From assembly GCF_058153355.1 (NCBI RefSeq), contig NZ_CM177019.1: DNA of 64,000 nucleotides; one strand, given 5' to 3'. This document shows positions 6,102 through 19,021 of the stretch, one piece after another. Both the position numbers and the translations under genes were made by a program. Position 1 is the stretch's first letter. Each line of letters opens with the position of its first letter. The notes under the pieces are model-generated. The model ran no database searches. It had not been told where the DNA came from and saw only the letters and a list, made by a program, of their open reading frames with translations.

Positions 6102-7166
6102 TTACACTTTGATTAAAACGGATTCGTTCTGTGGAAATTGAGGCGCATCGTCAAGAAGTAAGGCGGCACTCACCTCTTCCTGCTGATGGCCCGACTGTTG
6201 TTGCTGTTGCTGCGACTGCCCTTCGGAGGAAACCTGTACGTTCACCTCCATAAAATTTTGCGCCGTCAGATGCTGGCGGAGATCGTCGCTAAACTGCTGT
6301 AACGCGCGACAAACCTCGCTTTGGTTCGCGCCGATGTGCACCGTCAGTTTGCCGTTGTCGAGTTGCACGGCGATCTCGAGCTTGCCAAGCGACGGCGGAT
6401 CAAGACGTATCGTGGAGATCTGCTGTTGTTTGTTGAGCTGAAAGTGGATCTGATCTTTCAGAAGCGTCGTCAGCTTTTCGCCCAGTTCGTCCATCGAAAA
6501 CGTGGCTGGTTTGGCGACAATCTCCTGATGATCGCTGACCAGCTCCGGCGTCTTAACCTGCAACACGGCCCTCGCAATAACCGGCTCGCTGTCTGCTACT
6601 TTTTCCGTTTTACGCTCGACCTGCGGGCGCGCGGTCACGCGGTTTGGCTCAGGTTTCGGACGAGCGGGCTGTGCCGATACGCGCGGCTGCGTCGGCGCAA
6701 TGGCATGTAAATCTTCACTGGCGTAAGTCGCCAGTCTGGCCTGCTGCTCCGGTTTCGCCTGTGGCAACTGGCCGACCAGCGCCTGCAACTGCGGCGGCAA
6801 CGGCGTGGGCTCCTGCTGTTGCGTCGGGTATTGTGGCGCGTTTTGCGCCACCGCTTTCGTCAAGTGCTGGATAACCGGCGATGTTGCGACATTTCGCGGC
6901 TGCGGCGTGTCCTGATGCAGCGCGGCAGGTTGCGGAAGTAACAGTGCCAGTAGCGCCTGCATCGCCACCGGATCGTTCTCCTGCGGGCGCGTCGCCTGTT
7001 GCTGGCTGGTTTTAGCGCTATGAACGCGCTCCGCCACCGCCGCGACCGCCATTTTCGGCAGGGTAAACGCGGGCGCGTTTTCACCGCTCACCGGCGGTAA
7101 AATATCCGCTTTCAGCGACGCCGTTTCCGCAAGCGTTCCGAGCGTGGCAAGCAATGCCGGATTCAT
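6102..7166 (-). CDS. lafE: FliK-like hook-length control protein
   Basis: 354-aa Pro/Gln-rich ORF with FliK-type C-terminal domain. Confidence 0.7.
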   Translation of the reverse strand: MNPALLATLGTLAETASLKADILPPVSGENAPAFTLPKMAVAAVAERVHSAKTSQQQATRPQENDPVAMQALLALLLPQPAALHQDTPQPRNVATSPVIQHLTKAVAQNAPQYPTQQQEPTPLPPQLQALVGQLPQAKPEQQARLATYASEDLHAIAPTQPRVSAQPARPKPEPNRVTARPQVERKTEKVADSEPVIARAVLQVKTPELVSDHQEIVAKPATFSMDELGEKLTTLLKDQIHFQLNKQQQISTIRLDPPSLGKLEIAVQLDNGKLTVHIGANQSEVCRALQQFSDDLRQHLTAQNFMEVNVQVSSEGQSQQQQQQSGHQQEEVSAALLLDDAPQFPQNESVLIKV

Positions 7167-7474
7167 GACTTATCCGAAAGTAAATTAATAATTGAGTAGG
7201 CCAGCACGCCTTCCTGATGGCGCTGATGCTGTTCCATACGCGCCTTCAACACTTCTGCACGCTGCTCGCGCCGTTTAATCAGGGCATTAAACGCGCCGTA
7301 CAATTGTGCTTTCACCGCACACAACTGCGCCGCATCGGTTTCCGCCGCTGCGTAATCGTGAAACTGGCGCATCAACTGCTTATGCAGTGCCGGAAGGCGT
7401 CGCCAGCGTTGTTTATCCAGCGATTCATTCATCGCCTCAATCAGCGCGAAAAGTTGCCTGCATTGTTTTTCCAT
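7163..7474 (-). CDS. lafD: Small flagellar chaperone, FliT-like by position
   Basis: 103-aa helical ORF between the FliS-like and FliK-like genes; call is by synteny, sequence similarity is weak. Confidence 0.5.
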   Translation of the reverse strand: MEKQCRQLFALIEAMNESLDKQRWRRLPALHKQLMRQFHDYAAAETDAAQLCAVKAQLYGAFNALIKRREQRAEVLKARMEQHQRHQEGVLAYSIINLLSDKS

Positions 7475-7478
7475 CGTC

Positions 7479-7893: not shown

Positions 7894-9210
7894 TTACGCG
7901 AATGCCGCCATGCTGGCTTTCATGGTGTACACCTCAACCAGCGTGTTGGTGTACTCCTCCAGATAACGGTCGTAGTTGGCGTTATAGGTATCGGTAAGCT
8001 GATCGCCTTCGTCCTGAATTTTGCTCATCTGATCGTCAATGTTCTGCTGGCGCAGGGTGATGATGCCGTTGCTGGAGTCCGTGTAGGTGTTAATCAGGTC
8101 ATCCATCTGCGCCACCATGCTGTTGTCGCCAACGAAAATAGAGGTCAGACCGTCAGGATTTTTCGCCATTTCGTCGTTGAACTGGTCGGAGTCAATCTGT
8201 AAGTGGCCGTGAGAATCAAGCGTGATGCCATAGTCAACAATCGACACCCCGTTGTAGCTGGCATGGGCGATATCATCGAGCTGGTTCGCCAGTGAGCTGA
8301 GTCCGGCGTCACCCGCAAATACCCCGGCGCTGGTACTGTCATCACCGTGGGTGGTCAACGAATCAACCGTATCAATCAAGGTGTTATAGGCATCAACAAA
8401 GGTCTGTACTTTCTCCTGGCTGGCGCTGGAATCTTCGCTGATGTTAAAGGTAGTGAGATCGCTGTCAGAATCGCTGACTTCGGTGAAAGTCATGGTGACG
8501 CCGGGGATCACATCATCAAAGGTGTTGCTGCTATTGGTGATCTCTGGCCCCGTGGCGCTGCCGAGATGAATAATCGCGTCCTGAGCGGAGGAAACATCCG
8601 TGGCAACGGGCGCGCTGGCGCTGTCGTTGCTGGCGTCATGCCCCGTTACGCTCACCGAAAATGCGCTCTGCGCCCCGGTGCTGTCCGAGGTGAGCATAAT
8701 GGTGGTGGTGCCGTCGGTTTTCACCAGCGCCGCCGACACACCTGGATTGTCATCGGAGTCGTTAATCGCATTCACCAGCTCGCTGGCGTCGATAAAACCG
8801 TCGCCGTCACCGTTCTGATCCGCCGCCGACAGATCAATATCCATGGTGCTGTCGCCCATCGTCAGTTCAAAAGTGCCGGTAGCGGAAAAGGCGTCGTCGC
8901 CCATACTGAACGTGGTCTGCTGCCCCTGCGCCAGTTGCTCAACATAAAATGAGTAGCTTCCCGCCTGCGCCTGCGAGTTAGCGGACACGGTCGCCGAGTC
9001 ATTATTGCTGGTGGCGGCAAACGTTACCGGGCCGTCGGTATCGCTGTTCAGCGCATCGACGGCACTTTGAAAATCGCTCAACGCCGAGCTGAGCGTATCC
9101 AGGCCGCTGCTTTCGGCATCCAGCTCCGTTTGCTTTTCCTGCAAATTTGCCGCCTGAGTGGCGACATCCGCATAAGCGATTTCCTGGGCAATAGTTCTTG
9201 GGTTAATCAT
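7894..9210 (-). CDS. lafB: FliD-like filament cap protein (HAP2)
   Basis: 438-aa ORF with FliD-like N- and C-terminal regions and Ser/Thr/Asp-rich centre. Confidence 0.8.
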   Translation of the reverse strand: MINPRTIAQEIAYADVATQAANLQEKQTELDAESSGLDTLSSALSDFQSAVDALNSDTDGPVTFAATSNNDSATVSANSQAQAGSYSFYVEQLAQGQQTTFSMGDDAFSATGTFELTMGDSTMDIDLSAADQNGDGDGFIDASELVNAINDSDDNPGVSAALVKTDGTTTIMLTSDSTGAQSAFSVSVTGHDASNDSASAPVATDVSSAQDAIIHLGSATGPEITNSSNTFDDVIPGVTMTFTEVSDSDSDLTTFNISEDSSASQEKVQTFVDAYNTLIDTVDSLTTHGDDSTSAGVFAGDAGLSSLANQLDDIAHASYNGVSIVDYGITLDSHGHLQIDSDQFNDEMAKNPDGLTSIFVGDNSMVAQMDDLINTYTDSSNGIITLRQQNIDDQMSKIQDEGDQLTDTYNANYDRYLEEYTNTLVEVYTMKASMAAFA

Positions 9211-9335
9211 TGATGACTCCGGTTAACGATATCAGGTTATTGGCAAAAGGCGTGCCAATAATTTTTATGTGAATAATCAATAGATTGAAAAATGGGCGGA
9301 AAGCGTGTTTCCGGTTCGGCGGAAAAGTGCCTGCC

Positions 9336-9365
9336 GCAAAAAGCACAACACCGCCCGCAGGCGGT
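9336..9365 (-). terminator. Putative rho-independent terminator (GC hairpin plus T-run on the minus strand)
   Basis: Stem accgcc/ggcggt with loop cgca at 9350-9365, followed on the minus strand by CTTTTTG; probably the original lafA terminator, now separated from lafA by REPs and IS621. Confidence 0.4.
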
Positions 9366-9371
9366 ATTGTT

Positions 9372-10881
<1,510 letters not shown>

Positions 10882-10987
10882 CATGCCTGCAATCTGGGAA
10901 ACCGGGGTAGAAAAAAACTTGCAGGCCATAACAGTATCTACGGGTCCGCACCTGTTTTTATGCGTCTGCCCGTTTGTAGGCCCGAAC

Positions 10988-11902
10988 TTACTGCAGCAGG
11001 CTGGAAACCATGCTGGACATGCTGTTGGACTGTTTCAGCATGGTAATACCGGTCTGCATCAGCACCTGCTGTTTGGTCATGTTGGACGCTTCCGTCGCGT
11101 AATCGGTATCCATAATGTTGCCGATAGCGACTTCGGTGTTGTCCTGCATGCTGGTCAGGTTGTTTGCGGTGTCGTTCAGACGGTTGATAGACGCACCCAG
11201 CTTGGACTGGATCTGCGAAACATCATCCATCGCGGTAGAAATGCTGGTGATCATCTGGTTAGCCGAGCCAGATGCGGTCAGTTCAGTACCGCCAGAAACG
11301 CCTGCGGTGCCCGTGGTGTCAGCCTGATCCGCACTGAAGGAGTTGCTGATAGCAGAAAGATCCGTCACCAGCGTGTTCAGCTGGCTTGAAATATTCACGG
11401 TCATGGTGTCGGAAGATTCCGCTCCCACCTGGAAAGTTACTGCGCTCTGGAACAGACCGTCAGTACCGGTGTTGCTGGTACCGGAAACACCGAACAGGTT
11501 GGTGCCGCCATAAGTGGTGTTTTGCAGCATGTCAGACATCTGCTGACCCAGTTCGTCGTATTCGTCCTGCATCGCCTGCAGATCGTCGTCGCTGTAGGTG
11601 CCGTTCGCTGCCTGAGTTGACAGGTCTTTCATACGACCCAGCACATCAGACATTTCATCGAACATACTGTCGGCGGTTTGCAGCATCGCCGTTGCATCAT
11701 TAATGTTGCTCAGTGCCACACCCATACCGCTGGACTGTGCAGTCAGACGGTTAGCAATCTGTTTGCCTGCGGCGTCATCGGCAGAAGAGTTAATCCGGTT
11801 ACCTGTTGCCAGGCGTTCCATAGATGTAGACAAAGAAGAGCTGCTTTTGCTGATTGCATTAACGGCGGCCATTGAGGCGTTATTGGTGTTAATAGATAAC
11901 AT
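10988..11902 (-). CDS. lafA: Lateral flagellin
   Basis: ORF with flagellin N-terminus (MLSINTNNAS...RINSSADDAAGKQIANR) and conserved C-terminus; AAGGAG RBS before ATG at 11902; the track ORF extends to 12001. Confidence 0.85.
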   Translation of the reverse strand: MLSINTNNASMAAVNAISKSSSSLSTSMERLATGNRINSSADDAAGKQIANRLTAQSSGMGVALSNINDATAMLQTADSMFDEMSDVLGRMKDLSTQAANGTYSDDDLQAMQDEYDELGQQMSDMLQNTTYGGTNLFGVSGTSNTGTDGLFQSAVTFQVGAESSDTMTVNISSQLNTLVTDLSAISNSFSADQADTTGTAGVSGGTELTASGSANQMITSISTAMDDVSQIQSKLGASINRLNDTANNLTSMQDNTEVAIGNIMDTDYATEASNMTKQQVLMQTGITMLKQSNSMSSMVSSLLQ

Positions 11903-12388
11903 GATACTGCTCCTTGGGATTAATCGTTTTCGTTTCGATACCCTGTAAAAACGACACCTCAGGAGCAAACTTAAAATCACTATGAAAAAAAATTTCGCCA
12001 CGTATTATCTGATGCCACTTTTAGCTAAAAAAAGCAGAGTTTAAATTCAGATAAAAAGATTATTAGCAATATCTGCCACATGGCCAGGTATCAAAATATG
12101 TCTTTATCAATTGCTTGATATAGTTAAGATTGTCATCAATTAACGCGTTTTCTTCACAATGTACTGATGCCAAAATTTACATTGCGTTGCAAATAGTACA
12201 CATTTGGCTATTGTACCTGTCCTGTCATTTCGTTACATTCCCACGCCATATAGTGATTAAGAATAATCCTATTACCATAAAATATTAATTATCACGCAGA
12301 AAAATCATCTTCTCAGGGACGTATAAGACTGTGCTTTATGTAAAGCACTATCAGGAACCATTTATCCCTTGCTAAGGTAAACTCAACT
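11903..12388. promoter_or_regulatory. AT-rich divergent intergenic control region between the flagellin gene and the ToxR-like regulator gene
   Basis: 486-bp non-coding AT-rich region between divergently oriented genes; no consensus promoter could be pinned down by eye. Confidence 0.3.
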
Positions 12389-13231
12389 ATGAGTATTATT
12401 ATCAACAACTGGCGGATGGACCCGTCACTCAATGCCTTAATACATTGCGAAACGGGTGAAACACGTCGTCTCGGCGAATACCATTTTATTTTGCTGGAAA
12501 CATTAGCAAAAAATGCCGATGTGGTTTTATCACGATCTTATTTATGTGCCGAAGTATGGAAGAACCGCATTGTCGGCGGTAACAGCCTGCCGACGGCGAT
12601 CCACGCTCTGCGCGTTGCCATTGATGATGACGGCAAGCAACAGAACATTATTAAAACTATCCCGAAAAAAGGGTACCTGTGCAATAAAGAATATGTGTCT
12701 TTGCCGGAGTCATCGCCTGCAGAAGCGCTGATTATTACCGACCAGATACAGGATACAGCCCCAGAAGAGATATCTTCGACAACACCGCCTGTACCTGTTA
12801 GAAAAAAACATAAAGGACTGATGGGGTTAGCGTTGGCCGCAGCTGTTATATTTATTGGCTCGACCGTGGGGTATTCACACTTGAAAAGTACACCTGACGC
12901 CCCGCAACTGGTAAAAGAGTCAATTAACAGTCCAAGAATAAAAATATTTCATTTAACTTCTGCTGGAGAAAATAATTCCGTACCGTTACTGTCACAAACC
13001 CTCGCACCAGGAAAAGACAAACTCGATAATTTATTGTCAGCGCATAATATGACAATGACAACCTATTATAAATATGTTCGTAACCGACTGGAGAGTGATA
13101 TTGTTCTGCGCAACCAGTGCAATGGTAGCTGGCAATTAACCTTTAATGTGGAAGGCTGGCAGAACAGTGATATTAATAGCACGATGTATCAGAATTTAGA
13201 GAAGTTGTTAAAGACTGTGCAGAAGTGCTGA
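12389..13231 (+). CDS. ToxR/CadC-like transmembrane transcriptional regulator (winged-helix domain, single TM segment, periplasmic domain)
   Basis: 280-aa ORF; N-terminal OmpR/PhoB-type winged-helix motif, hydrophobic segment LMGLALAAAVIFIGSTVGY; may correspond to the Flag-2 transmembrane regulator. Confidence 0.6.
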   Translation: MSIIINNWRMDPSLNALIHCETGETRRLGEYHFILLETLAKNADVVLSRSYLCAEVWKNRIVGGNSLPTAIHALRVAIDDDGKQQNIIKTIPKKGYLCNKEYVSLPESSPAEALIITDQIQDTAPEEISSTTPPVPVRKKHKGLMGLALAAAVIFIGSTVGYSHLKSTPDAPQLVKESINSPRIKIFHLTSAGENNSVPLLSQTLAPGKDKLDNLLSAHNMTMTTYYKYVRNRLESDIVLRNQCNGSWQLTFNVEGWQNSDINSTMYQNLEKLLKTVQKC

Positions 13232-13246
13232 TGAGTGCCAATATAT

Positions 13247-13283
13247 GCCGGATGCGACGCTAAAGGCGTCTTATCCGGCCTAC
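13247..13283. repeat. REP element
   Basis: gccggatgcgacgctaaaggcgtcttatccggcctac palindromic unit. Confidence 0.8.
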
Positions 13284-13534
13284 GAAAATCCCGAATGAAA
13301 TCAATCGGAATTGCTGATAGTTTTAGTTATTGGTAACTCTAGCTTTTTATTAATGACAGTTTGCCGGAGTCGTTCTGCTTTTTTTATTATTCGCCTACGA
13401 CTTTCAGGGCTTTGCTTATCCATCAGTTGCTTGAGAGTAGCCATTTCATTCCTTTTTTAACCCGCAGAGTTACAGCATATTCTGCACTGAAATGATTTTT
13501 TACGACAACCTCATTTGATTGATTTTCAATAACC

Positions 13535-14512
13535 CTACCCCAATAAATTCCTCACTGTCTGGCTGGAAATTCGCGCCTGACCGTTCACCGCCTGCAATAA
13601 AACCTGATAGTTATGATTGGCGCTGTCGAGCACACCGCCGAGATTTTCCGACGCCTGTACCGCGCTTTCTGTCTGCGGAAAGCGGGACATGCCGTCGATC
13701 AACTGGCGGGCTTTTTCCTGCTGCACCGCCATCTTCGCGCGCTGCTGATTAATGTTTTCTAACGTCTGAGAAATCCCCGCCCCGCCCTGTTGCAGGCTTT
13801 GCGCTAACCGCTCGGCTTCAGAGGGTTCGGCAAAGGTTTTTAGCGGCATAAACGCTGATTTATCGCCATCGGTGCGCACGCTTAAGGTGCGCTCGATATG
13901 GGGCCATTGTTTTTCAGTGGTGGAGAAACTGATGCCATCCGCTTGCTGATGCAGCTGCACGCCTACGCGGCGCAGGGCGTTGGTCAGCCGTGTCTGGTAC
14001 TGCCCGGCGTTATCATCCTCAGACAGCATCACCGCCGAAAGCTGGGTCTGCCGCCCGTCAGAAACGCTGAACATCCGCGTTCCCGGTGTGGGGTTGTTGA
14101 CGAGATTTGCCAGATCCGGCGAGTGAAAGGTCACCCGCGCTTCGCCCTGTAACACCGGCTGCAACTGGCGGTCCACCGCGCCGCCGGAAAGTGCGGTGCG
14201 TTTATCCAGCATCTGCGTGAGCGCCGTACCCTGCGCCTGCCCGCTCTTACGCTGGCTATGACGATAATCGAGCAACTGCTGTTCCAGTTGCCCGAGATAG
14301 TGATCCGCCTGCTGCAAGGTGGTGAGCTGGTCGTTAAGCTGCACGCTGTAACGCTGCGGGCGAGTGGTAATCAGCGGTGAGACCGGATATTCACTCGCCG
14401 TCGCCGGGAGCTTTTGCCGCACCGCCTGAGTGGGCGCAATGGTTGACGACGATACCGCGGCGCTATGCGCGCCGCCGGTGGCGAGTGATGAAGATGTAAG
14501 TCCGACCTGCAT
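13535..14512 (-). CDS. Flagellar-associated protein of unknown function with a flagellin/HAP-like C-terminal helix
   Basis: 325-aa ORF between the FlgL-like gene and the regulator; C-terminus resembles axial-protein export helices. Confidence 0.45.
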   Translation of the reverse strand: MQVGLTSSSLATGGAHSAAVSSSTIAPTQAVRQKLPATASEYPVSPLITTRPQRYSVQLNDQLTTLQQADHYLGQLEQQLLDYRHSQRKSGQAQGTALTQMLDKRTALSGGAVDRQLQPVLQGEARVTFHSPDLANLVNNPTPGTRMFSVSDGRQTQLSAVMLSEDDNAGQYQTRLTNALRRVGVQLHQQADGISFSTTEKQWPHIERTLSVRTDGDKSAFMPLKTFAEPSEAERLAQSLQQGGAGISQTLENINQQRAKMAVQQEKARQLIDGMSRFPQTESAVQASENLGGVLDSANHNYQVLLQAVNGQARISSQTVRNLLG

Positions 14513-14528
14513 ACTGTTCCTGAAAGAG

Positions 14529-15458
14529 TTAGAGAACGCTGAACAAATTCAACTCACTCACCTTCGAGTAAGTCTTGAGGGTAGCTTCCATTGCCACTTC
14601 CAGTCCGGTAAAGGTGATCGACGCCGGGCCGTAATCGAGATCCTGCAATGAACCAATCAACTCATCATTAGATGTCGAGATATCGGTCTGTGCATCGCTC
14701 AACATCGACATGGTGTTTTGTGTCTCGCCGAGCGACGCAATCGAGGCGTTGAGGTCGTCCGAGGCGGTGTCCACCACATTAACGGCGTTCTGAATATCGC
14801 TTTGTACCTGCGGATCTGCCGGGTCAACGTTAGGGTCTTGCAACTCCTGAGAGAGCGAATTGAGCGTGTTGAGTACATCTAAATTGCTGCCAAAGAAATC
14901 ACTCGCCGCCACGTTGGTATCTACTTCGACGCCGTTCGACACCGTAGTCTGGCGATGGTCGCTGTTACCCTGATAGCTGTAGCTATCGGTCACGCCATCA
15001 CCGTCATCGTCCACCGCCACAATCGGCGGTTGATCGTTGATGGTGCCGCCAAAGACGTAATTCCCGTCTTCATCCTGATAGTTGAGCGCCGCCACCATCG
15101 ATTCGGTGAGCGACTCAATATCCTGCCCAAGGCTTGCCAGCGAATTGGCGGTATTGGTGCCGTTCGCTGCTTCCAGCAGGTCGTCGCGCACCGCCAGCAG
15201 GCTGTTGTTGACGCCATCGAGAATCGACTCCTGCTGGCTTAAGCCCGCCGACGCGGAGTCGATATTGCTCTGATACTGCTCAATCGCCGACTGCTGGCGG
15301 TTCAACTGGGTGATTCGTGTGGCGGCGATAGGGTCATCTGATGGCTGCAAAATTTCCTTGCCGGTTGCCATCTGCTCGACCACGTGCGCCAGTTCGCCAG
15401 AAAGATTATTAAAGCTTTGCGTCATCGAGACGTAGGTTTGTTGAGTGGTTACTCGCAT
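14529..15458 (-). CDS. lfgL: FlgL-like hook-associated protein 3
   Basis: FlgL-like sequence; start chosen at MRVTTQQTY (the track ORF extends to 15482). Confidence 0.75.
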   Translation of the reverse strand: MRVTTQQTYVSMTQSFNNLSGELAHVVEQMATGKEILQPSDDPIAATRITQLNRQQSAIEQYQSNIDSASAGLSQQESILDGVNNSLLAVRDDLLEAANGTNTANSLASLGQDIESLTESMVAALNYQDEDGNYVFGGTINDQPPIVAVDDDGDGVTDSYSYQGNSDHRQTTVSNGVEVDTNVAASDFFGSNLDVLNTLNSLSQELQDPNVDPADPQVQSDIQNAVNVVDTASDDLNASIASLGETQNTMSMLSDAQTDISTSNDELIGSLQDLDYGPASITFTGLEVAMEATLKTYSKVSELNLFSVL

Positions 15459-15472
15459 TTTCGCGCTCCCGC

Positions 15473-16849
15473 TTAGCTGCACATTTCCAGCACCGAATCA
15501 AAAATCTCGGCCCCGGCGGAAATGACTTTCAGATTGGCTTCATAAATTTGTTGATAGGTGATCAGGTTCACCGCCTCTTCGTCCATGCTGACGCCGCTGA
15601 CACTGCTCTGCTGGTTTTGCGCCTCAGAATAAACATTGGACGCGGCAGTCACTTCGGTCTGGTTTTGCTGAGTGTAAATGCCGATATTGCTGATGATTGA
15701 CGAGCACGCTTGCCCGACCGTCACGCTGCCGAGGTTGGCTATCTCCAGCGGCTCAGTGGAGATGTTGATCAGCGCCTGCAGGTTGTCACTGTTGCCGCTT
15801 TCGTCCGGCGAACTGGAGAACGCCAGTTCATCAGCGGTGATATCCGGGTTAACGGTCAGCGGGCCATCGGCATTACTGGCATCGTAAATAAACAGCGGCT
15901 CGCCGGGGTTACCGTTGAGATCGTAGCCCTGCGCCAGCTGGTTGTTGACCGCATCGGCAAACTGCGACGCCATGCTGTTGATGGTGTCGGTCAGCGGCGT
16001 CAGGACGTCGTTTTGATAATCAAAAAGTGCGCCTAATGAACCGCCGGTGTCGGTGGTCATCGTCGAGGTGGTTCCGGCGAAGGTCAGCGACATGGTCGGC
16101 GTGCCATCGGCGTTGGTTTCCAGCGCGATGGTCGAGCTTTGCTGCCCGCTCACCAGCGGCTGACCGTTTTGCAGGGTAACGTTGTAGTTGCCCTGGTCGT
16201 CGATATTGACCTGCACATCCATCATTCCGCTGAGTTCTTCCACCATCTGGTCACGGGCGTCGTACAGCGCGGAGGCGTTATCCCCGTTGGCTTCGGCCTG
16301 GGCGATTTGCTGGTTATAGCTGGCGATGCCGCTGGTGAGGGTGTTAATTTGCGACACCATCGCCTGCTGCTGGCTGATGATTTCCGTGCTTTGCGAGTCG
16401 ATGTAATCCAGCGTGTTATCGATACGCAACGACAGCGCCCCGGCTTCGCTGATCACCTGCTCGCGCAGGGCAGAATCATCGGGGCTGGTGGTCGCTTCGT
16501 TGAGGGCCGCGAAAAAGTTATCGAACCCGCCGCTCAGGCTGCTGTTATCGTCGCTCAATACCGCTTCCAGTTGCGTGAGATACCCTTGCTGGGTGTTGTA
16601 ATAGCCGTAATCGCTGGCGGCATACCACACCTGATTCACCTGATACTGGTTGGAGACGCGACGAATGCTGTCGACCTGCACACCGTTTCCGGCGCTGTTC
16701 GGCGACCCGCCGCTGGCACCGATAGTGCTGATCTCCGCCACCTGGCGGGTGTAGCCCGTGGTCATGGCGTTAGCGGTGTTTTGCGCCGTGACGTTCAGCT
16801 CCACCTGCGCGGTTGATGCGCCGCTGTAGCCGATGTTAATCATGTCCAT
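15473..16849 (-). CDS. lfgK: FlgK-like hook-associated protein 1
   Basis: 458-aa ORF with FlgK-like N-terminus (NTANAMTTGYTRQ) and C-terminus. Confidence 0.8.
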   Translation of the reverse strand: MDMINIGYSGASTAQVELNVTAQNTANAMTTGYTRQVAEISTIGASGGSPNSAGNGVQVDSIRRVSNQYQVNQVWYAASDYGYYNTQQGYLTQLEAVLSDDNSSLSGGFDNFFAALNEATTSPDDSALREQVISEAGALSLRIDNTLDYIDSQSTEIISQQQAMVSQINTLTSGIASYNQQIAQAEANGDNASALYDARDQMVEELSGMMDVQVNIDDQGNYNVTLQNGQPLVSGQQSSTIALETNADGTPTMSLTFAGTTSTMTTDTGGSLGALFDYQNDVLTPLTDTINSMASQFADAVNNQLAQGYDLNGNPGEPLFIYDASNADGPLTVNPDITADELAFSSSPDESGNSDNLQALINISTEPLEIANLGSVTVGQACSSIISNIGIYTQQNQTEVTAASNVYSEAQNQQSSVSGVSMDEEAVNLITYQQIYEANLKVISAGAEIFDSVLEMCS

Positions 16850-17042
16850 GTTGGATCCTTACCGGTAAATCGTGCCGGTTAAAAGCGGCGTGAAGTTGGA
16901 GATTCTTAAGTTCCGTAAACCGGGCGCCAGACACCGGATGCAGCCTGCATACGGGCACAAACATAAAAATATGTGCGAACTCGTAGATACTGTTATGGCC
17001 TGCAAGTTTTTTTCTACCCCGGTTTCCCAGATTGCAGGCATG

Positions 17043-18269
<1,227 letters not shown>

Positions 18270-18307
18270 TGATAAGCGTAGCGCATCAGGCAATCTGGCA
18301 CCAGACA

Positions 18308-19021
18308 TCACGCCGCATCACTGTCGGCATCGGGTACGCCAAACTGGCTAATCATGGTGAACGGCACTTCGCCTACACCGGCAACGTTAAGCACCGGAGA
18401 GCTGCCGTCGAGCGGGATGCGCACATCTTCCACTTCGCCGGAGACTTCAATCGGTACTTCTTCTTCCCCGGTATTGGTCACCACCGAGACGTCGTAATCG
18501 CCCGGCGGGATGCCGTAATCCGCCGGGTTAATCGAGAAATCCACTTGGCCTGGCCCAACCGACGAACTCCCTTCCGGGATCAGCGAGACGGTGTAGTCAT
18601 CGCCCGCAGCATCGGTAAAGTGGAGATCGGCGGTGGTACAGGCGTCGTCCAGCGTGGCGCGACCGTTAATGGTCTGGTCACTCACCTGCAAGGCGGTGGT
18701 CTGCACCATAATGTCGTCGCCCACCAGGTTGCCGAGCGCCATCACCTGAATGTTGCTCATCAGCACCGCGTTGGTATTGGCCTGCACGCTCATCTCTTCC
18801 ATCATCGCCACCTGCGCCATCGACGAAAGCTGGTCGATATATTCGGTGGCATCGGTCGGGTCGGTCGGGTCCTGGTTTTGGATCTCAGCGACAAACAGCG
18901 TCAGGAAAGTATCGACGGGCGAGCTATCGCTGCTGCTTGTCGTGTCGCTGGCTGCCACATTATTGCTTTCCGCCGTGGCGGTCGGTTGCGGCGATTGCGC
19001 ATTCAGCGCCAGGGTATTCAT
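18308..19021 (-). CDS. lfgD: FlgD-like hook capping/scaffold protein
   Basis: 237-aa ORF with FlgD N-terminal motif (FLTLFVAEIQNQDPTDP) and C-terminal beta domain. Confidence 0.75.
   Translation of the reverse strand: MNTLALNAQSPQPTATAESNNVAASDTTSSSDSSPVDTFLTLFVAEIQNQDPTDPTDATEYIDQLSSMAQVAMMEEMSVQANTNAVLMSNIQVMALGNLVGDDIMVQTTALQVSDQTINGRATLDDACTTADLHFTDAAGDDYTVSLIPEGSSSVGPGQVDFSINPADYGIPPGDYDVSVVTNTGEEEVPIEVSGEVEDVRIPLDGSSPVLNVAGVGEVPFTMISQFGVPDADSDAA

Follow-up and report, generated by a model that had tools for sequence, protein, structure and literature searches.

The lafZ and lafW genes of an interrupted Escherichia Flag-2 locus: a predicted ToxR-type membrane regulator and a putative axial-family protein in separate units

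A stretch of 64,000 nucleotides from contig NZ_CM177019.1 (RefSeq assembly GCF_058153355.1), hereafter the window, carries a Flag-2 lateral-flagellar locus, and the subject of this study is the interval 12389-14512 within it. By sequence identity and gene order, this interval is assigned to lafZ (12389-13231, plus strand, 280 aa) and lafW (13535-14512, minus strand, 325 aa) of the Escherichia Flag-2 locus; a first-pass annotation of the window had placed two open reading frames (ORFs) there, and the ORF list contains both at exactly these coordinates. Our overall reading, to which we give a probability of roughly 0.7, is that LafZ is a ToxR-type bitopic regulator, that LafW is an exported protein of the axial family, that the two genes belong to separate units, and that the Flag-2 locus is broken in this genome. 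The first-pass annotation had left the regulator unnamed and had called the 325-aa gene uncharacterised, which needs correction, as both are already annotated as lafZ and lafW of Flag-2. De Maayer et al. 2020 (PMC6993521) give lafWZABCDEFSTU as the third gene cluster of Flag-2 and used both LafW and LafZ as Flag-2 markers; a passage of the same paper, citing Ren et al. 2005, describes LafZ as a 'transmembrane regulator' and LafW as a 'putative hook-associated protein', the label that lafW also bears here. By that account, the names and roles date from 2005 (Ren et al.), and the gene identification made here is already known. The present analysis adds, for LafZ, a DNA-binding domain like that of ToxR, a periplasmic fold resembling that of VtrA and a pair of conserved cysteines; it also places lafW in the lfgKL operon and apart from lafZ, and points, for other genera, to a candidate partner of LafZ.

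The region 12000-14600 matched 1266 complete E. coli genomes at 94–95% nucleotide identity, with 98% to one strain. The RefSeq gene order in those genomes is lafA, a winged-helix protein, a 'flagellar hook-associated protein', flgL and flgK, and the corresponding E. coli proteins were 95–98% and 94–95% identical in amino acid sequence to LafZ and LafW, respectively. lafZ lies between lafW/lfgL and lafA, is divergent from lafA and shows high identity, and on these grounds it is an orthologue of Flag-2 lafZ. Similarly, alignments and synteny place lafW directly downstream of lfgL, with a product in the range of about 325–345 aa that carries the motif YPASPLIxTRPQRYSVQLNDQ. The genes are the same as lafZ and lafW of E. 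coli 042 Flag-2, in the same lfgL-lafA position and with the same predicted roles. Together with lafK, lafZ and lafW set enterobacterial Flag-2 loci apart from the primary flagellar locus.

LafZ is predicted to consist of a cytoplasmic winged helix (residues 1–100), a variable disordered linker (101–142), a transmembrane helix (143–165) and a periplasmic α/β domain (167–280). Residues 25–97 matched the Pfam Trans_reg_C winged helix (expect value (E) 1.3e-13), and the protein begins directly with this domain, which is of the OmpR/PhoB type and has no receiver domain ahead of it. When a profile of LafZ orthologues was compared with the PDB, the best match was Vibrio cholerae ToxR (E 8e-10), followed by CadC (1.7e-6), and ToxR was also the best PDB match to the winged helix by fold. 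The hydrophobic segment at 143–165 (Kyte-Doolittle 19-residue mean of 1.98) is flanked by 4 lysine or arginine residues on its N-terminal side and 1 on its C-terminal side. Exactly one hydrophobic segment was found in each of 25 orthologues, with an excess of lysine and arginine on the N-terminal flank in 24 and equal numbers in the other.

An AlphaFold2 model of LafZ, built from 25 sequences, had a predicted local distance difference test score (pLDDT) of 87–92 across most of the winged helix, a disordered linker at 107–143, a helix at 145–166, and a periplasmic β-β-α-β-β-β-α domain at 173–276 (pLDDT 83–93), which in this predicted structure is of the ToxR/VtrA α/β type. Each of the 25 orthologues retains the periplasmic Cys244 and the C-terminal Cys280, and the domain is probably stabilised by a putative disulfide between them. 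The first-pass description of a one-component transmembrane winged-helix regulator was thus borne out, with a protein of the ToxR type, and its proposed topology prediction returned one segment, a positive-inside bias and the modelled helix. Overall, the term 'ToxR-like' is supported for all three parts, namely the winged helix, the transmembrane helix with its N-terminus inside, and the periplasmic domain, the topology being a predicted one.

Within the Escherichia group, the ratio of nonsynonymous to synonymous substitution rates (dN/dS, ω) was 0.06–0.19 for the whole of LafZ, 0–0.06 for its DNA-binding domain and 0.05–0.24 for its periplasmic domain (the last range omits one near-identical pair, with only three substitutions in the domain), while that of lafW was 0.07–0.12. 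Both genes are under purifying selection and are therefore real genes rather than chance ORFs.

LafZ differs in several respects from the characterised proteins that it resembles. The periplasmic domains of LafZ and V. cholerae ToxR, which is found with ToxS, share no sequence similarity, and no toxS-like gene lies downstream of lafZ in Escherichia; the regulon comprises porins and virulence genes in the case of ToxR and is presumably flagellar in that of LafZ. Sequence identity to the bile-salt receptor VtrA/VtrC of V. parahaemolyticus (PDB 5kev) was only 11%. CadC of E. coli is a 512-aa protein whose large periplasmic pH-sensor domain has a different fold. LafZ was also rejected as a CadC equivalog, since it scored 34.1 bits with NF007540 (cut-off, 400) and the match was confined to the winged-helix region. 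The database label 'CadC family' is therefore unsupported for LafZ at the equivalog level, and judged by these comparisons LafZ is not a CadC orthologue.

Scans of Pfam and NCBIfam assigned LafW to no family. Its structural model (overall pLDDT 70; predicted template modelling score, 0.52) comprises a disordered segment (1–50), a long helix (52–90), an α/β insert (96–241) and C-terminal helices (247–276, 282–309 and 317–324). In a comparison of the close-orthologue profile with PDB sequences, the two best matches were flagellins, with weak scores (E 0.08–0.09), and in the alignment LafW 246–291 corresponded to the beginning of the C-terminal D1 helix of flagellin, the register at this end being correct; with a profile of the wider LafW family, this signal fell to E 0.46. 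The best structural matches to the predicted helical core in the model were the FlgL and flagellin D1 domains. Flagellin_IN matches were seen in 7 of 109 LafW relatives, all of them sub-threshold, and hhalign comparisons of the LafW profile with profiles of LfgK and FliD made from the comparison loci were not significant. Of the flagellin/hook-associated-protein (HAP)-like C-terminus that the first-pass annotation had described, a weak profile signal in the correct register thus stands, and no Pfam flagellin domain accompanies it; we regard the description as reasonable but unproven.

LafW is most likely an exported axial-family protein: a junction or accessory component that is similar to FlgL and flagellin but divergent, and whose disordered N-terminal region would serve in export. 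Export by the flagellar type III system is suggested indirectly by the disordered N-terminal 50 residues and by the position of the gene after lfgKL. Alternatively, LafW might be non-structural, acting as an exported or cytoplasmic regulatory or chaperone-type late-assembly factor, such as a secretion-coupled checkpoint protein or a chaperone decoy. We consider this rather unlikely: the leading structural matches and the best PDB sequence matches, in the right register, all point to FlgL and flagellins or to flagellins alone, and the size of LafW and its fixed place after two junction genes in the same operon fit a structural partner.

The two genes upstream of lafW are the hook-filament junction genes lfgL (14529-15482, minus strand; NCBIfam flagell_flgL, 194.6 bits) and lfgK (15473-16849, minus strand; NCBIfam flgK_ends, 352.2 bits), and lafW starts 16 nt beyond the lfgL stop codon. 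It follows lfgK-lfgL in all 28 enterobacterial loci, and the arrangement of lfgK-lfgL-lafW convergent with lafZ, with lafA beyond and divergent from lafZ, is likewise kept in 28 of 28. Upstream of lfgK, at 16882-16909 (minus strand), lies a putative σ28-type promoter-like element, TTAAGAAT-N12-GCCGCTTT, which shares the pattern of the lafA element described below and was found in both the window and the E. coli locus L001. An exhaustive profile search for the LafW family retrieved 227 cluster representatives (50% identity), all of about 330–380 aa. In 26 of 26 enterobacterial and five of five distant contigs, flgK-flgL are followed by the LafW homologue as the final gene; within 10 kb of it, three of the distant loci (L033, L034 and L035) had no winged-helix (Trans_reg_C) regulator. 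The family also closes flgB-L operons well outside Enterobacterales (L031, L033, L034 and L035) and is without a Pfam entry, and it amounts to an undescribed family of flagellar-operon proteins.

From gene order and spacing, we regard lafW as the terminal gene of the lfgKL operon, in an lfgK-lfgL-lafW transcription unit with a putative σ28-type promoter, and lafZ as an independent regulatory insert between that operon and lafA. The first-pass annotation had treated the regulator and the 325-aa gene as a pair, a view that did not hold, as lafW belongs with lfgKL and its relatives follow flgK-flgL even where no winged-helix regulator is nearby. Co-transcription of lafZ and lafW is impossible because the genes are convergent. 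They could still form one functional module, with LafZ sensing the export or accumulation of LafW, for example; the genes lie side by side, both distinguish Flag-2 from flag-1, and both evolve faster than their neighbours. We nevertheless hold this to be very improbable, given the LafW relatives that end flg operons without a Trans_reg_C gene within 10 kb and the apparent replacement of the lafZ allele independently of lafW, seen in comparison with Pseudocitrobacter (LafW 97% and LafZ 62% identical).

The latter comparison reveals lafZ as a mosaic element: against the two Pseudocitrobacter loci (L003 and L006), LafA is 100%, LafW 92–97% and LafZ only 62–63% identical, with saturated synonymous divergence (dS) for lafZ. 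For Pseudocitrobacter vendiensis, the values are 100% for LafA, 97% for LafW (dS 0.125) and 62% for LafZ (dS saturated), and the break in identity falls within the lafA-lafZ spacer, near 11960-12000. The pattern looks like an allelic replacement of the regulator gene lafZ alone, independent of lafW.

A more distant lateral-type flagellar cluster is present on a JGI metagenome contig (L029, 8001-16929), where a LafW homologue again stands after flgL. No flagellin gene lies between lafW and fliD in this cluster, and a ToxR-like regulator encoded after motB shares 33% identity with LafZ over the winged helix (hhalign 98.9%).

As the first-pass annotation had stated, lafZ is divergent from the lateral flagellin gene lafA, and a 486-bp AT-rich spacer separates the two. 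lafA (10988-11902, minus strand) matched the NCBIfam model lat_flg_LafA_1 (666.8 bits, residues 34–337), and the orthologous RefSeq locus is likewise lafA; its true start is Met34 of the listed 337-aa ORF, so that the protein has 304 aa, and a Shine-Dalgarno sequence, AAGGAG, precedes the ATG. We aligned the spacer from 14 species and derived a phylogenetic footprint across Escherichia, Pseudocitrobacter, Citrobacter and Phytobacter. A promoter-like element at 11948-11974 (minus strand), TTAAGTTT-N11-GTCGTTTT, adjoins lafA; both boxes are conserved in the 14 species, the 11 nt between them are fixed in length and variable in sequence, and the pattern occurs only once in the window. The boxes look like a σ28-type promoter, and lafA is most likely a late, LafS-dependent gene.

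The remainder of the spacer contains further conserved blocks, to which no strand is assigned and each of which is unique within the window. The footprint comprises AAAAGATTATTAGCAATATCT (12053-12075), TTTACATTGCGTTGCAAAT (12176-12194) and TTTCGTTACATT (12229-12240), and AAGATTGTCATCAAT (12126-12140) is a degenerate direct repeat (D1) of AAAAGATTATTAGCAATATCT. A weak σ70-like pair, TTGCAA (12187-12192)-N16-TATTGT (12209-12214), lies among them. The blocks at 12053-12243 may contain the lafZ promoter and sites to which regulators bind. A generic scan for σ70 promoters and terminators over 11850-13600 showed no enrichment over shuffled sequences and no terminator. The spacer also holds an exact 9-nt direct repeat, CTGATGCCA, at 12009-12017 and 12164-12172, 155 bp apart and conserved only within Escherichia; its minus-strand reading is similar to a σ54 −24 box (TGGCAT), with no −12 element after it. 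Canonical σ54 (TGGCAC-N5-TTGC) and σ28 (TAAA-N15-GCCGATAA) promoters were sought by eye around this repeat and rejected, the spacings being wrong.

The proposal that LafZ couples an envelope or periplasmic signal to lafA expression is plausible, and lafA has a conserved putative σ28-type promoter of its own. In the most likely mechanism, the small periplasmic domain of LafZ, which would set the activity or stability of the protein, would sense an envelope or surface-related cue. The OmpR-class winged helix, held in the cytoplasm and tethered to the inner membrane by one helix, would then bind conserved sites in the lafZ-lafA spacer or at other Flag-2 promoters and modulate expression. Because lafA itself has a σ28-type promoter, the LafZ input would be layered on top of the LafK(σ54)/LafS(σ28) hierarchy, and any effect of LafZ on lafA would be modulatory or indirect. 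It is also conceivable that LafZ acts elsewhere, at its own promoter, on the master regulator gene lafK or on genes outside Flag-2, and that lafA is driven only by LafS (σ28). The complete, conserved σ28-type promoter next to the lafA start would fit such an arrangement, as would the position of the most strongly conserved spacer blocks (12176-12243), which are closer to lafZ than to lafA, and the distant locus L029, where the ToxR-like regulator is encoded after motB, at the distal end of the cluster, and not beside a flagellin gene. Against this, the divergent lafZ-lafA layout is kept in every enterobacterial locus that retains lafA, and the block and its repeat (12053-12075 and 12126-12140) lie 80–165 bp from the lafA −35 box on its upstream side, a position usual for activators; we therefore find action of LafZ solely away from lafA doubtful.

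The 303-bp spacer between lafZ and lafW (13232-13534, no strand assigned), known as the 'VR2' slot, contains a repetitive extragenic palindromic (REP) element at about 13237-13285 (no strand assigned), detected as a weak naRNA4/REP match in Rfam, and the remnant of an antitoxin-like helix-turn-helix pseudogene at about 13301-13444 (minus strand; 47 codons, MATLKQLMDKQSPESRRRIIKKAERLRQ...). RefSeq annotates a pseudogene at the same site in L001 ('helix-turn-helix domain-containing protein, incomplete'), and the remnant is probably a leftover of the toxin-antitoxin cargo reported there in E. coli 042. The window copy differs from that of E. coli 042 in that neither a cargo nor a partner gene separates lafW from lafZ. 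According to De Maayer et al. 2020 (PMC6993521), the slot holds horizontally acquired 'VR2 cargo', which has a mean size of 0.6 kb and a mean of one protein and occurs in 81% of loci.

In 19 of 26 species-representative loci (L010-L028), the whole lafZ-lafW gap is filled by a single ORF of about 157 aa (range, 154–168 aa) on the lafZ strand (for example, 7002-7478 on the minus strand in L010); the carriers belong to Citrobacter, Phytobacter, Enterobacter, Leminorella, Pseudescherichia and unnamed Enterobacteriaceae. In most loci, ORF and tblastn coordinates place the ATG of this candidate partner 23 nt upstream of where the lafZ stop codon ends, with an overall range of about 20–26 nt. Read directly, the end of lafZ in L010 is aat gaa atg cca aaa tgc aaa taa (NEMPKCK*), with MKCQNAN in the +1 frame, and the overlap in L026 is the same. 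The encoded protein begins with a signal-peptide-like segment, contains two invariant cysteines, recalls ToxS, TcpH and VtrC in position, size and compartment, and is named 'hypothetical protein' in databases; no Pfam domain and no PDB sequence match were found for the family. The candidate partner differs from VtrC in that it seems to carry a signal peptide that is cleaved off, and no membrane anchor. A 168-aa ORF that overlaps the ToxR-like regulator gene of L029 was considered as a further member and rejected, as it does not align with the enterobacterial family.

The partner ORF is missing from the window, where a six-frame scan found no ORF in the 303-bp spacer and the best tblastn match had an E of 0.12, and from the Escherichia and Pseudocitrobacter loci as well. 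A co-transcribed periplasmic partner of the kind represented by ToxS, TcpH, VtrC and PsaF is therefore lacking in the window; such a partner is typical of the class and not universal, CadC having none. We tentatively suggest, at somewhat below even odds, that LafZ is normally one half of a two-protein envelope sensor resembling ToxRS or VtrAC, and that Escherichia and Pseudocitrobacter have lost the partner and carry a diverged 'solo' allele of LafZ.

The surrounding locus differs from that of E. coli 042 in lacking lfgE-lfgJ and in carrying two insertions of IS621 (IS110 family). Copy 1 (9648-10981, plus strand; Pfam DEDD_Tnp_IS110 and Transposase_20; 99.6% identical to annotated IS621) lies 7 bp beyond the lafA stop codon, between lafA and lafB/fliD (7894-9210, minus strand). 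Copy 2 (16943-18276, minus strand) is 99.3% identical to copy 1 by self-BLAST, in inverted orientation, and lies upstream of the lfgK promoter-like element at a distance of 33 bp. At copy 2, some 6.3 kb of reference sequence containing lfgJ, lfgI, lfgH, lfgG, lfgF and lfgE are missing; beyond this copy, the window rejoins the reference at 3862080, just 3' of lfgD. With the hook, distal rod and L/P ring genes gone, the Flag-2 apparatus would be unable to assemble, and it is probably non-functional in this genome. Elsewhere, the window contains lfgD-lfgN, VR1 methylase and glycosyltransferase genes, and lfhAB/lfiPQR. Three tandem REP-type units of about 90 bp (9369-9659) stand beside copy 1 and match Rfam naRNA4, two of them above the gathering threshold (80–88 bits); a scan of 9000-18500 with Rfam returned nothing but REP-type naRNA4 matches. 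The position of the three units beside copy 1 fits the view of REP sequences as insertion sites of IS621.

Whether lafZ and lafW are inert relics of a decaying locus in this genome is, in our estimation, an evenly balanced matter. The IS621-linked loss of lfgE-lfgJ and the other IS621 copy between lafA and lafB favour such a view, as does the literature, in which Flag-2 is often inactivated in Escherichia. However, both ORFs are full length with dN/dS values against relatives of 0.06–0.19, LafZ could still regulate other targets, and the damage is recent, the two IS621 copies being 99.3% identical.

Several results have to be set against the reading of LafZ as a ToxR-type regulator and of LafW as an exported axial-family protein, in separate units of a broken Flag-2 locus. 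The periplasmic domain of LafZ has no sequence match to any solved structure in the PDB or to any Pfam family. Unlike FlgL (HAP3) and the flagellin D1 domain, LafW shows no match to Flagellin_N or Flagellin_C, either at E ≤ 10 in 22 close orthologues or at E ≤ 1 in 109 family members, and it has no D0 helix at its N-terminus, where the first 50 residues are variable and predicted to be disordered. Comparison of the extended LafW profile by hhalign gave P 0.09 against LfgL and 0.39 against LafA, whereas the LfgL-LafA control reached 97% probability. No LafZ binding motif was demonstrable computationally, and the conserved blocks of the spacer could instead act for other regulators or as part of the promoter of lafZ. 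Moreover, LafZ and LafW are probably without flagellar output in this genome, and the searchable literature yielded no experimental study of either protein.

Since the locus is broken, the two genes would have little physiological consequence in this particular genome. If LafZ is indeed normally paired with the product of the ORF in the VR2 slot, the commonest VR2 gene would be a conserved Flag-2 signalling component rather than cargo, and the regulation of Flag-2 in Escherichia would differ from that in other genera or be weaker. No other protein of the Flag-2 locus is an obvious signal input, and LafZ is thus a natural entry point to the question of what switches on lateral flagella in Enterobacterales.

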